This document shows positions 60,486 to 63,030 of a stretch of DNA of 64,000 bases, piece after piece. Positions within the stretch are counted from its first letter, which is position 1. The number at the start of each line of letters is the position of its first letter. The stretch covers positions 96,001 through 160,000 of the forward strand of contig CAVRAO010000012.1 in assembly GCA_963719035.1 (NCBI GenBank), given 5' to 3'. This DNA is from Methanobacteriota archaeon (GTDB lineage Archaea > Halobacteriota > Bog-38 > Methanoflorentales > Methanoflorentaceae). A program made the translations under genes and the position numbers. The notes under the pieces are model-generated. The model was not told the DNA's origin. It did not search any database and saw nothing but the letters and a program-made list of their open reading frames with translations.

Positions 60486-60625
60486 TTTTTCTCCTCCGTG
60501 TAGCCAGGGTAGCGTATCTTATACAGTCTAATTCGTCAATTGTGCTCCTTGACTAAATAGCTTCGTTGTTGCAGAGGCACGATGAAATCGAAACGCCTAA
60601 ACCCAATCCATTCATCTGTTCCCCC

Positions 60626-61315
60626 ATGGAGCCCTCATATATAGCAAAGGAAGCAGCCGGAAGGTCAATCGCCGAATTGGTCGAAGACGGAATGGTCATA
60701 GGGCTCGGAACTGGGACCACTGTGGCTCGTGCGATCGCCCATCTGGGGAGACGTATCGTTGACGAGGGGCTTTCCATTGCGGGTGTTCCAACGTCTCATC
60801 AGTCGATGCTGCTTGCGGTGAAGCATCGTGTCCCACTTACGACGTTGTACGAGCATGAATTCGTTGATATCGCCCTCGACGGCGCTGATCAGGTCGATGC
60901 ACGCCTTAACCTCATTAAAGGCGGCGGAGGGGCCCATACGCGCGAGAAAATAGTTGCGCGCTCGGCGAGGCGGTTCTGTGTTGCAGTCGATGCTTCAAAA
61001 CTGGCGTCGCGTTTGAATTTGCCCGTGCCGCTCGAAGTGCTGCCCATTGCATGTCCGCTCGTTCAGAACGAGGTCAATCGAATGGGGGCCACTGCAAAAC
61101 TAAGGCAATCTGAGAAAAATCGCGTCTCGGTTACCGATCAGGGGAACCTTATCCTTGACGCGGACTTCGGAGTAATCAAGAATCCAGAAAAGTTAGCAAA
61201 GGAGCTATCCACTATAACTGGAGTAGTGGAACACGGCATTTTTGTTGAGGTCAGTGAGGTGCACGTCGCGCGACTCGCTGGAAAAGCTGCCTCAGTTGAG
61301 ATCTTGATGAGGTAG
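60626..61315 (+). CDS. rpiA: Ribose-5-phosphate isomerase A
   Basis: GLGTGTT, DGADQ, KGGGGA..REK and GVVEHG motifs. Confidence 0.95.
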   Translation: MEPSYIAKEAAGRSIAELVEDGMVIGLGTGTTVARAIAHLGRRIVDEGLSIAGVPTSHQSMLLAVKHRVPLTTLYEHEFVDIALDGADQVDARLNLIKGGGGAHTREKIVARSARRFCVAVDASKLASRLNLPVPLEVLPIACPLVQNEVNRMGATAKLRQSEKNRVSVTDQGNLILDADFGVIKNPEKLAKELSTITGVVEHGIFVEVSEVHVARLAGKAASVEILMR

Positions 61316-61332: not shown

Positions 61333-61725
61333 CTATTTATCTATTCCAACGGTTCGTGAAAGGCTTCGTAGCATAGCGATGGTCTCTTCGTCTTGCTGCG
61401 CGTCGCGTTTCCGCACGTCGTCGAGTGAGTCGATGATATCGCAGAGTTGTGTGGAGAGACGGTAACACTTAAGCGGGCGCCCTTTGCCCTCTTTTTTTTG
61501 TTCCCATTCTTCAATCCAACCGCGTTCCCTCATTTCGCGCATCGCGATGCTCACTTCAGGCTGTCGCAAGCCGGCACCAAGCTCAATATTGCGGGAAACC
61601 GATTCATTGACGTTGGCTAGATACACCAATGCTTTCGCCAAGTTCCTCTTGACTCCGACATCGCAAAGAAGGCTTGCCATCACTTCTTCATCTTGGTCGA
61701 ATACCGGTAAGGATCCGTCCCTCAT
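61333..61725 (-). CDS. Archaeal winged-helix transcriptional regulator
   Basis: LRQPEVSIAM.E...GW...GKGRP...Y.L pattern. Confidence 0.85.
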   Translation of the reverse strand: MRDGSLPVFDQDEEVMASLLCDVGVKRNLAKALVYLANVNESVSRNIELGAGLRQPEVSIAMREMRERGWIEEWEQKKEGKGRPLKCYRLSTQLCDIIDSLDDVRKRDAQQDEETIAMLRSLSRTVGIDK

Positions 61726-61876
61726 TATATCCCCCTTACTATTTTTATCATATAAATTATATTGACGATATAAATACGTTTTCAAATTATTTCTTCGATT
61801 TTCGGTCAAAAATGCCTTATTTTAATTATAGGATAACATCTATATTATCTTTAATATAAACTGGTGCACGCGCGCG

Positions 61877-61894
61877 TCAAAAGCCTTTTATAGA
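61877..61894 (+). promoter_or_regulatory. BRE-TATA promoter of the tRNA gene
   Basis: TCAAAAGCC followed by TTTTATAGA, ~60 nt upstream of the mature tRNA. Confidence 0.6.
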
Positions 61895-61952
61895 GCGCTC
61901 GTAATAGCGGGAGTGTCTGAAGGGGCTGCTTAGCCTCTTGCAGCACCTCGCA

Positions 61953-62083
61953 GCCGGGGTGGCCTAGTAAGTTGTTGCAGACGTAGGCAATGATCTAGAT
62001 GGCTAAGGTGTCAGACTCATAGGGTAATCTAACTCGACACCTGAGATATCTGAAGAGCGCGGGTTCAACTCCCGCCCCCGGCA
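61953..62083 (+). tRNA. tRNA-Met(CAT), probably elongator, with two introns (61970-62000 at 17/18; 62022-62047 at 37/38)
   Basis: Spliced cloverleaf GCCGGGG-TG-GCCT-AGTA|GGCTA-AGGT-G-TCAGA-CTCATA|A-TCTGA-AGAGC-GCGGG-TTCAACT-CCCGC-CCCCGGC-A; both introns form bulge-helix-bulge motifs. Confidence 0.92.
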
Positions 62084-62187
62084 TGCTCTATTCTTTGAGA
62101 ATTAACTATATATCTCTGATTTTTTTAGATATGACTATTAAGTTTTATGAAGATTCGAAAGCTGCAGCTTCCAGGAAAATCGAGCAA

Positions 62188-63030
62188 ATGAAAAAAAAAT
62201 TGCTTTGTATAACAATTGTTTTGCTCATCGCCGTTACGATATGTGGGACCGGTTGCACATCAAACACCTCTGGCGCTAGGGTTCAGGTCGCTGGATCTAC
62301 AACAATCCAACCTCACGCTGAGGCGTTAGCGAAAGCATTCCAAACAAACAACTCCGGTATCACGGTGTTCGTACAAGGTGGGGGCTCATCTGCCGGCGTC
62401 ACAGCGGTCGGAACAGGCACCGCAGACATCGGCATGTCATCTGCAAACCTGACAGCAAGTCAACTAGCACGGTACCCGAATCTCAAGCCAGTACCAATTG
62501 CTGTAGATGGGTTAGCCGTTATCATCAACCCACAAAATCCCGTTGATAGTCTGACGCTTAACCAAGTGCGTGATATCTTTAGTGGAAGTATCAGTAATTG
62601 GAACCAGGTTGGCGGGCCAAGTCAGCAGATAAATACAGTCAATCGTGAGATCGGGTCTGGCACTCGCGATGGCATACAGAAAATAGTGCTGAAAAATGGC
62701 AGCTTTAGTAGCAGAGGAATCACCCAGTCGTCAACAGGAGCCGTCAGATCGTTTGTTGCTGCTGATCCCAACGCAATCGGTTACATTTCATTTGCGGAAG
62801 TCGACAATAGCGTTAAGGCCTTAGGGATTGATGGCGTTGTGCCTACATACGCATCTATAGCTAATGGAACCTACCCGATCCAACGCGACCTCCTCTTTGT
62901 AATAAACGGAGACCCGAGCGGCTATGCAAAGGCCTTTCTAGATTTCACACTAAGTCCTGCAGGGCAAGCGATATTGAAGGCCAATAACGAGGTGTCGATA
63001 AACGACGTTTCAGTGAGTGGGTCCGCTTAG
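62188..63030 (+). CDS. pstS: Phosphate ABC transporter substrate-binding lipoprotein
   Basis: TGC lipobox; AGSTT, GGGSS.G, RE.GSGTR and YPI.R motifs. Confidence 0.92.
   Translation: MKKKLLCITIVLLIAVTICGTGCTSNTSGARVQVAGSTTIQPHAEALAKAFQTNNSGITVFVQGGGSSAGVTAVGTGTADIGMSSANLTASQLARYPNLKPVPIAVDGLAVIINPQNPVDSLTLNQVRDIFSGSISNWNQVGGPSQQINTVNREIGSGTRDGIQKIVLKNGSFSSRGITQSSTGAVRSFVAADPNAIGYISFAEVDNSVKALGIDGVVPTYASIANGTYPIQRDLLFVINGDPSGYAKAFLDFTLSPAGQAILKANNEVSINDVSVSGSA

Follow-up and report, generated by a model that had tools for sequence, protein, structure and literature searches.

A tRNA-Met gene interrupted at two positions

In a 64-kb stretch of archaeal DNA (the window; contig C12:96001-160000 of assembly G000), we identified a tRNA(CAU) gene (61953-62083, + strand; coordinates without a contig name are positions within the window) that is interrupted by two inserts, one of 31 nucleotides (nt) in the D-loop between nt 17 and 18 of the tRNA (17/18) and one of 26 nt at the canonical position 37/38. 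We consider it highly probable that the gene works, that it is the one copy encoding the elongator tRNA-Met(CAU) in an uncultured Mcr-bearing euryarchaeon, and that its transcript carries two protein-spliced introns. D-loop introns and multiple introns in one tRNA gene are already known; what is notable here is the 17/18 position, the host class with its splicing endonuclease (EndA) of the alpha'2 type, and the failure of common tRNA finders to report the gene. It is a well-supported case of ordinary archaeal tRNA splicing in an unusual place, and the known mechanism of that process is left unchanged. The assembly (2.19 Mb in 13 contigs, 91% complete) carries McrA and an archaeal 16S gene with a tRNA-Ala(UGC) gene just downstream of it.

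The tRNA is encoded in three exons on the + strand. Exon 1 (61953-61969) supplies nt 1-17, namely, the 5' strand of the acceptor stem, U8, G9, the 5' strand of the D-stem, and A14-A17; exon 2 (62001-62021) supplies nt 18-37, with G18 G19, the 3' strand of the D-stem, the 5' strand of the anticodon stem, the CAU anticodon (62018-62020), and A37; and exon 3 (62048-62083) supplies nt 38-73, with the 3' strand of the anticodon stem, a 5-nt variable loop, the T-arm, the 3' strand of the acceptor stem, and the discriminator A (62083). In the acceptor stem, 61953-59 is paired with 62076-82, and CCA is not encoded at the 3' end. When both inserts were removed in silico, with each of the four splice sites (see below) cut behind the second base of its bulge, the product was a 74-nt cloverleaf that the ARAGORN program called tRNA-Met(cat). 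It has a normal D-arm, A14, G18G19, a 5-nt variable loop, and a TTC-containing T-loop, and its D-loop reads A14 G15 U16 A17 | G18 G19 C20 U20a A21. A sequence-only reading of this DNA had described the gene as a tRNA-Met with two introns and had held that cutting after the second bulge base restores A14-G15-T16-A17|G18-G19; every coordinate holds on re-dissection by hand and by script, and the in silico splice yields precisely that D-loop within a cloverleaf.

Archaeal initiator tRNAs are marked by an A1:U72 pair and by three G:C pairs in the anticodon stem. The mature tRNA described here has G1:C72 and an anticodon stem of UCAGA/UCUGA and is thus unlike the initiator type. Two further CAT genes are present in the assembly. 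One of them, at C2:232180-232254, is initiator-like (A1:U72, three anticodon-stem G:C pairs), and the other combines a GGGCC acceptor stem with an encoded CCA; we tentatively take the latter to be tRNA-Ile2, the type in which CAU is modified to agmatidine. Since the two other CAT genes look initiator-like and GGGCC-type, respectively, the assignment of the window gene as elongator tRNA-Met is supported. The mature sequence occurs in the assembly solely as the three exons (C12:157953-157969, 158001-158021, and 158048-158083), and the window locus is most likely the sole elongator tRNA-Met gene of the genome. If so, both inserts have to be removed for the translation of internal AUG codons.

Splice motifs at both insertion sites

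Each insert lies in a bulge-helix-bulge (BHB) motif. Intron 1 (61970-62000, +; 31 nt), at the non-canonical position 17/18, is the insert whose removal restores the cloverleaf. The 5' strand of its motif, BHB1 (61960-61978, +), consists of an outer helix strand (61960-63), a central helix strand (61964-67), a bulge (61968-70, with the cut after 61969), and an inner helix strand (61971-78); the 3' strand (61987-62005, +) consists of the inner helix strand (61987-94), the central helix strand (61995-98), a bulge (61999-62001, with the cut after 62000), and the outer helix strand (62002-05). The outer helix has 4 base pairs (bp), U-A, G-U, G-C, and C-G; the central helix is CTAG/CTAG; and the bulges, TAA and ATG, lie on opposite strands and are separated by exactly 4 bp. 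The inner helix comprises 8 bp, of which 3 are G-U, and is closed by a loop of 8 nt. BHB1 is thus of the strict form, with both the outer (h) and the inner (h') helices present. Intron 2 (62022-62047, +; 26 nt), at the canonical 37/38 position, was reported by ARAGORN with its intron option (-i) after the removal of intron 1. Its motif, BHB2 (62011-62053, +), is formed by the anticodon stem (62011-15/62049-53), a central helix (62016-19/62042-45), bulges TAG and ATA (62020-22 and 62046-48), and an inner helix of 3 bp (62023-25/62039-41). The order of elements along the strand is the same in both motifs: helix, central helix, bulge, inner helix. Our pair list bears out the earlier description of the 26-nt intron, with its central helix and TAG/ATA bulges, and, for the 31-nt insert, of a strict BHB in every part (outer helix, central helix, bulges, and inner helix).

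To gauge how readily such a motif arises, we shuffled the 31 nt of intron 1 200,000 times with the exons fixed and obtained a 4-bp central helix with at least 2 inner pairs in 703 cases and with at least 8 inner pairs in 3. In the whole genome, 270,798 strict motifs were found among ~6.6 × 10^8 position-length combinations, and 131 of them match the quality of BHB1 (outer helix of at least 4 bp, inner helix of at least 8 bp).

Nucleotides 10-13 can be used either by BHB1 or by the D-stem. With fixed structures in which the remaining pairs are the same, the energy model gave -44.1 kcal/mol for the double-BHB structure vs -39.5 kcal/mol for the D-stem conformer; with each arrangement enforced, it gave -48.3 kcal/mol for the BHB conformer vs -44.9 kcal/mol for the D-stem conformer. 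The sequence-only reading had reasoned that the BHB competes with the D-stem, so that splicing has to precede folding, and it was right on this point: the nucleotides are shared, and the model favors the BHB conformer. Both BHBs are able to form simultaneously, and therefore no order of splicing is implied. An inspection of intron 1 by eye for the C and D box motifs of guide RNAs (RUGAUGA/CUGA) revealed no such pair, and the 31 nt of the intron would not accommodate a guide RNA of the C/D-box type.

Conservation of the D-loop insert across the class

The class of this archaeon is represented in the genome collection by 24 genomes, all from one family, which has two genera (g1 and g2). The comparison of tRNA-Met across related genomes, proposed earlier as a check, was run as a DNA search of 41 genomes, and it recovered the gene with both inserts in G000 and in 17 of the 23 other members of the family (12/17 of g1 and 5/6 of g2). 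A second search, over the whole class, likewise recovered it in 18/24 genomes, among them 5/5 of the high-quality ones. The six class genomes without a match are 60 to 78% complete. Each genome carrying the gene has exactly one match, including all four single-contig genomes of the class. Outside the class, six orthologues (L020, L021, L022, L025, L027, and L028) have an uninterrupted D-loop and retain the 37/38 intron, which is likewise present in all 18 class orthologues; three weak out-of-class matches (L023, L024, and L026), confined to the 3' part of the query, were left out of the comparison. A pattern scan for 18 to 48 extra bases in the D-loop of the conserved tRNA-Met, with one genome for each of 185,579 species, recovered D-loop-interrupted versions in just 17 stretches, and these are identical in sequence to the 17 relatives from the DNA search. 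A single gain in the ancestor of the class, with retention thereafter, is the probable history of intron 1.

The orthologues yielded an alignment of 17 distinct sequences, all close kin. Their exons are almost invariant (nt 1-16 are invariant and nt 17 is nearly so) and their introns vary, with the D-loop insert ranging in length from 29 to 33 nt across the 18 genomes. In all, 97.8% of the 680 pair cells of the double-BHB structure are paired, vs 35 to 47% when the partners are slid by 1 to 3 columns. The outer and central helices of BHB1 are 100% paired (17/17), the intron-side CTAG never varies, and the geometry of two bulges separated by 4 bp is kept in all 17 distinct orthologues. The inner helix is 92.6% paired, with one-sided changes at six pairs and a two-sided change (U-A to A-U) at one pair in 5 sequences; 6 of its 8 pairs are formed in all 17 sequences, and the two innermost pairs fail in the 5 sequences from genus g2. 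The loop of BHB1 differs freely among the orthologues. In BHB2, the anticodon stem and the central helix are 100% paired.

These comparisons bear on the possibility that the locus is decaying or nonfunctional and that elongator tRNA-Met is supplied by an unassembled gene or by another CAU tRNA. The assembly, at 91% completeness and in 13 contigs, leaves some room for such a gene, and tRNA-Ile(GAU) and tRNA-Thr(GGU) are likewise not found in it. We nevertheless regard this possibility as having almost no probability: the exons are nearly invariant in 17 distinct sequences while the introns vary, in each of the four single-contig genomes of the class, the one match is this gene, the mature sequence has no other match in the assembly, and a promoter-like block is conserved upstream of the gene within the genus (see below).

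Contigs from RNA libraries

Contigs of 151 to 214 nt that match the locus were present in four metatranscriptome runs from four studies, and the 31-nt insert is found in at least one contig per run. Those from three of the runs (X1, X2, and X4) cover ~61895-62079 with both inserts, and the fourth run (X3) has three contigs over parts of the region. Two base changes in these contigs, G>A at 61974 and G>A at 61992, leave the affected pairs of the BHB1 inner helix intact. The insert-bearing form therefore exists in independent data sets; because intron 1 occupies the same site in 17 other species-level genomes and in the contigs of four RNA runs, it is no assembly artifact.

The splicing endonuclease and a proposed route to the mature tRNA

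An RtcB gene is present in the genome, and two PF01974 domains were found in one EndA reading frame of 340 to 360 amino acids (aa) in 16 of the 18 family genomes searched. Residues 23-332 of the 345-aa EndA of one relative (G017) align to the alpha'2 EndA of Archaeoglobus fulgidus (2gjw, 1r0v) with an E value of 6 × 10^-34, and in one pairwise alignment, the catalytic region of the C-terminal repeat is gap free with respect to the A. fulgidus enzyme and has no insertion near the catalytic His. Judged by its sequence, the EndA of the lineage is of the Archaeoglobus-like alpha'2 type, i.e., two tandem units in one polypeptide. According to three papers (PMC4033280, PMC5829648, and PMC4090602), the alpha4 and alpha'2 enzymes cut only canonical or strict motifs, and the processing of relaxed motifs depends on enzymes of the loop-bearing (alpha-beta)2 or epsilon2 types. 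The D-loop motif is strict and so fits the enzyme type.

We propose the following route. In the precursor, the D-stem would not form; the partners of exon 1 nt 8-15 would instead be CTAG, at the 3' end of intron 1, and G19-A21, in exon 2, so that the two 3-nt bulges of BHB1 would hold the 17/18 splice sites, and the anticodon arm would form a second, ordinary motif at 37/38. The homodimeric alpha'2 EndA of the lineage would then cut after the second base of each bulge, and RtcB would join the three exons and probably circularize the introns. The D-stem (G10-U25 to U13-A22) and the contact of G18G19 with the T-loop would form only after splicing, and end trimming and the addition of CCA would finish the tRNA. 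Cleavage, ligation, circularization, and their order are inferred; both inserts are almost certainly spliced out of the transcript.

Several results weigh against this interpretation. (i) The minimum-energy fold of the unconstrained precursor (-51.7 kcal/mol) contains neither BHB1 nor the cloverleaf, and the double-BHB structure lies 7.6 kcal/mol above it. (ii) The pairs of the outer and central helices are almost invariant and thus provide little evidence of covariation, and the 17 sequences are so closely related that a shuffle control of the alignment (0 of 500) overstates the support; better evidence comes from the slid control and from the freely varying loop as set against the fixed pairing. 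(iii) The reviews place the action of alpha'2 enzymes at the canonical position (PMC4090602 and PMC4033280), and cleavage of a strict motif in a D-loop by an enzyme of this type is a prediction. (iv) The EndA gene of G000 itself (C2:671970-673006, -) is broken by a 2-nt insertion between the repeats, near 672,345 and directly before an ATG (…ECAYL|MRLGL…), which leaves frames of 259 and 131 aa and puts the intactness of the host's own enzyme in doubt; the break may reflect a misassembly, a genuine split of the gene, or its decay to a pseudogene. (v) The contigs from the RNA runs are all unspliced and contain no exon joints, although a mature tRNA of 74 nt is not expected in contigs of this kind; they may represent precursor RNA or carried-over DNA.

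The last of these results would also fit a tRNA that is never relieved of the 31 nt and keeps an extra hairpin in an enlarged D-loop, an arrangement with which the stability and conservation of the inner hairpin agree as well; in addition, a preprint states that tRNAscan-SE draws unrecognized inserts as enlarged D-loops. Yet extra sequence between A17 and G18 would push G18G19 out of its contact with the T-loop. The orthologues also preserve both 3-nt bulges and the intron-side CTAG, and with them the exact geometry cut by EndA, something that a mere hairpin would not require. The mature tRNA not being expected in the contigs, its absence from them is uninformative. We therefore consider retention of the hairpin very improbable and removal of both introns the far better account of the gene.

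Relation to known tRNA introns

The claim of the sequence-only reading that non-canonical tRNA introns are rare in euryarchaea agrees with PMC4090602, PMC4033280, and PMC5829648, albeit with exceptions. Among the latter are Methanopyrus kandleri, Methanothermobacter thermautotrophicus, and the long tRNA-Ser(CGA) genes of Methanosaeta and Methanohalobium, which appear in the tRNAscan-SE 2.0 supplement. Multiple tRNA introns are reported in PMC4033280 for Thermoproteales, M. kandleri, M. thermautotrophicus, Korarchaeum, and ARMAN. The non-canonical positions listed in a passage of PMC4090602 are 20/21, 22/23, 25/26, 29/30, 30/31, 45/46, 53/54, 56/57, 59/60 "etc.", and 3/4, and 17/18 is not named in that list. 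In 2014, PMC4090602 and PMC4033280 credited euryarchaeal tRNA genes with a single, canonical intron and named Korarchaeum as the sole alpha2-type archaeon to have non-canonical introns; these statements are already softened by the tRNAscan-SE 2.0 supplement. Our literature search, the scope of which did not extend to the catalogues of Sugahara et al. 2008 and Marck and Grosjean 2003, retrieved no account of tRNA introns in this lineage or of an intron at 17/18.

The closest parallel is the pre-tRNA-Glu(UUC) of M. kandleri, also a euryarchaeal precursor with introns at 37/38 and in the D-loop, both of which have to be removed for viability (PMC5829648). There, however, the D-loop intron directly precedes A21, its motif is of the relaxed HBh' form, and the processing enzyme is an (alpha-beta)2 heterotetramer, whereas the intron in tRNA-Met lies at 17/18 in a strict motif and in a host with an enzyme of the alpha'2 type; the alpha'2 EndA of A. 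fulgidus did not clearly release the M. kandleri D-loop intron (PMC5829648). The pre-tRNA-Thr(UGU) of Aeropyrum pernix likewise has a BHB-type D-loop intron, which is spliced in vivo in that organism (PMC5829648; see also PMC3241643), but A. pernix is a crenarchaeon with an (alpha-beta)2 EndA that bears the specific loop, and the tRNA and the site are different. Thermoproteales, M. thermautotrophicus, Korarchaeum, and ARMAN share with the present case multiple introns, non-canonical positions, and transplantable BHB motifs; yet, to judge from PMC4033280 and PMC4090602, they have mostly broadened-specificity enzymes, many such introns, and signs of intron transposition, in contrast to the three non-canonical inserts in two tRNAs found here. 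A search of the genome for signs of transposition revealed no other copy or look-alike of either tRNA-Met intron.

The long tRNA-Ser(CGA) genes (124 to 151 nt) of Methanosaeta concilii, Methanosaeta harundinacea, and Methanohalobium evestigatum, newly detected by tRNAscan-SE 2.0 according to its supplement, are similar in that they represent non-canonical inserts in euryarchaea of a group that encodes alpha'2 EndA (PMC5829648), and the genus studied here also has an interrupted tRNA-Ser(CGA). They differ in concerning a tRNA other than tRNA-Met, and the supplement describes them by coordinates and scores only.

An interrupted tRNA-Ser(CGA) gene

The tRNA-Ser(CGA) gene of G000 (C2:273262-273409, -) has two non-canonical inserts and none at 37/38. 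One, of ~17 nt, is in the D-arm; the other, of 32 nt, is in the variable arm and has a strict BHB (273304-273335). The D-arm insert fails the strict motif, having either a 5-bp helix or a 4-nt bulge. The interrupted gene is found across genus g1, in G000 and in 14 of the 15 relatives searched, with two of the matches being partial. Outside the class, tRNA-Ser(CGA) is uninterrupted in three genomes and has an insert of ~41 nt at the same D-arm site in one (G024). In comparison with every relative, the G000 gene has an extra C in the 5' strand of the acceptor stem (~C2:273,400, -), which breaks the 1:72 pairing and suggests residual indel errors in this assembly.

Position, motif, and possible selection

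A clean, conserved, strict motif in the D-loop is of interest in a lineage whose type of EndA is usually described as acting at 37/38 only. Together, tRNA-Met and tRNA-Ser(CGA) constitute a compact natural set of substrates with which to ask whether the alpha'2 enzymes are limited by the shape of the motif or by its position. A further-reaching interpretation, which we offer as a doubtful one, is that an Mcr-bearing class with an alpha'2 EndA devoid of the specific loop has fixed at least three non-canonical introns (one at 17/18 in tRNA-Met and two in tRNA-Ser(CGA), in its variable arm and, with a non-strict motif, in its D-arm) and that, if this enzyme splices all of them, its architecture sets no limit on their position or number and the class-wide retention of intron 1 in the only elongator tRNA-Met gene could reflect selection. 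Were this true, intron position and number would be unrestricted by endonuclease architecture, contrary to the co-evolution model, and retention of intron 1 could serve as protection against the tRNA-targeting integrative elements that litter the genome or could couple the folding and modification of the D-arm to splicing.

That intron 1 is removed and yet is selected for on either account, as a shield against tRNA-targeting integrative elements or as a means of coupling the folding or modification of the D-arm (e.g., at G15) to splicing, seems to us unlikely. The insert is retained class wide at one site in an essential single-copy gene, the genome has several tRNA-derived att-like relics (see below), and G15 sits within the central helix of BHB1. 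However, the unpaired sequence of the intron drifts freely, as expected of a neutral passenger; the intron has no similarity to other loci in the genome; its 31 nt are too few for a C/D-box guide RNA; and both ideas are drawn from general background rather than from the data.

Flanking sequences and neighboring genes

Upstream of the gene is a promoter-like element (61879-61899, +), an A-rich stretch with TTTATA at 61887-61892, ~61 to 66 nt from the mature 5' end. The A-rich/TTTATA block is found 59 to 72 nt upstream in 12/12 of the distinct g1 sequences (at the matching place in L003-L014) and was not seen in the 5 g2 sequences, which have a different conserved upstream block. In the same 12/12 g1 sequences, it is followed by a conserved TAATAGCGGGAGT-like block. 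Archaeal promoters have a consensus of a B recognition element and a TATA box (BRE/TATA), and on this basis, we consider the A-rich/TTTATA block a putative promoter; the conserved upstream blocks in g1 would then imply a leader of ~35 to 40 nt. A T-rich tract just 3' of the gene (62091-62096, +), with a similar tract after the orthologues, is a possible transcription stop.

The upstream neighbors are a gene for ribose-5-phosphate isomerase A (60566-61315, +) and, on the opposite strand, an open reading frame of 158 aa without a Pfam match (61333-61809, -). Downstream lies a gene for a PBP_like_2 solute-binding protein (62083-63030, +), the true start of which is probably farther downstream, as the listed start at 62083 overlaps the last base of the tRNA.

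Detection by tRNA finders and other tRNA loci in the genome

In its default mode, ARAGORN reported no tRNA in the whole 64-kb window, and no Rfam family reached its gathering score at the locus, the Rfam tRNA model scoring 26.7 bits vs a cut-off of 29. With the D-loop insert left in, ARAGORN -i reported nothing, or miscalled the gene as Ser(aga) when only intron 2 had been removed; with only the D-loop insert removed, it reported the gene with its 26-nt intron. The earlier suspicion that annotation may miss the gene was thus justified for ARAGORN and for the Rfam tRNA model. Pipelines built on these two would report this abundant class of peat and wetland methanogens as being without an elongator tRNA-Met, which matters for estimates of completeness and for inferences on decoding. 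tRNAscan-SE 2.0 includes a routine for non-canonical introns.

Genome wide, ARAGORN -i reported 45 tRNAs, none of them on C12. In a SPLITS-like scan, the 270,798 strict-BHB candidates were spliced in silico and fed to ARAGORN, which gave 38 with the junction inside a tRNA; most of these are chance junctions near the ends of known tRNAs. One match, "Ile(gat)" at C8:151159-151269, was rejected, because dissection by hand showed it to be tRNA-Gln(UUG) with an ordinary 38-nt intron at 37/38; the same locus (- strand) is miscalled "tRNA-Stop(tta)" by ARAGORN -i. A "tRNA-SeC(tca)" call of that program (C8:441302-441389, +) becomes tRNA-Arg(UCG) with a 15-nt intron at 37/38 once a strict BHB is removed. 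An intron-agnostic search for a T-arm and acceptor stem gave 119 candidates, none convincing beyond the known tRNAs and the target itself. Neither tRNA-Ile(GAU) nor tRNA-Thr(GGU) was found in the assembly by ARAGORN -i, the strict-BHB splice scan, the T-arm/acceptor search, or half-tRNA profiles; the two genes may be more heavily interrupted or unassembled.

The half-tRNA profiles turned up only att-like 3' halves of tRNA-Val. These orphan halves extend from the anticodon loop to the acceptor end and fall into two families, within each of which the upstream sequence is similar: the first is found at C9:10625-10652, C9:11798-11825, C11:72572-72599, and C2:710495-710522 and the second at C2:508-535, C11:83985-84011, C8:30501-30528, C8:121761-121788, and C8:382822-382845. 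They look like att-site relics of integrative elements.

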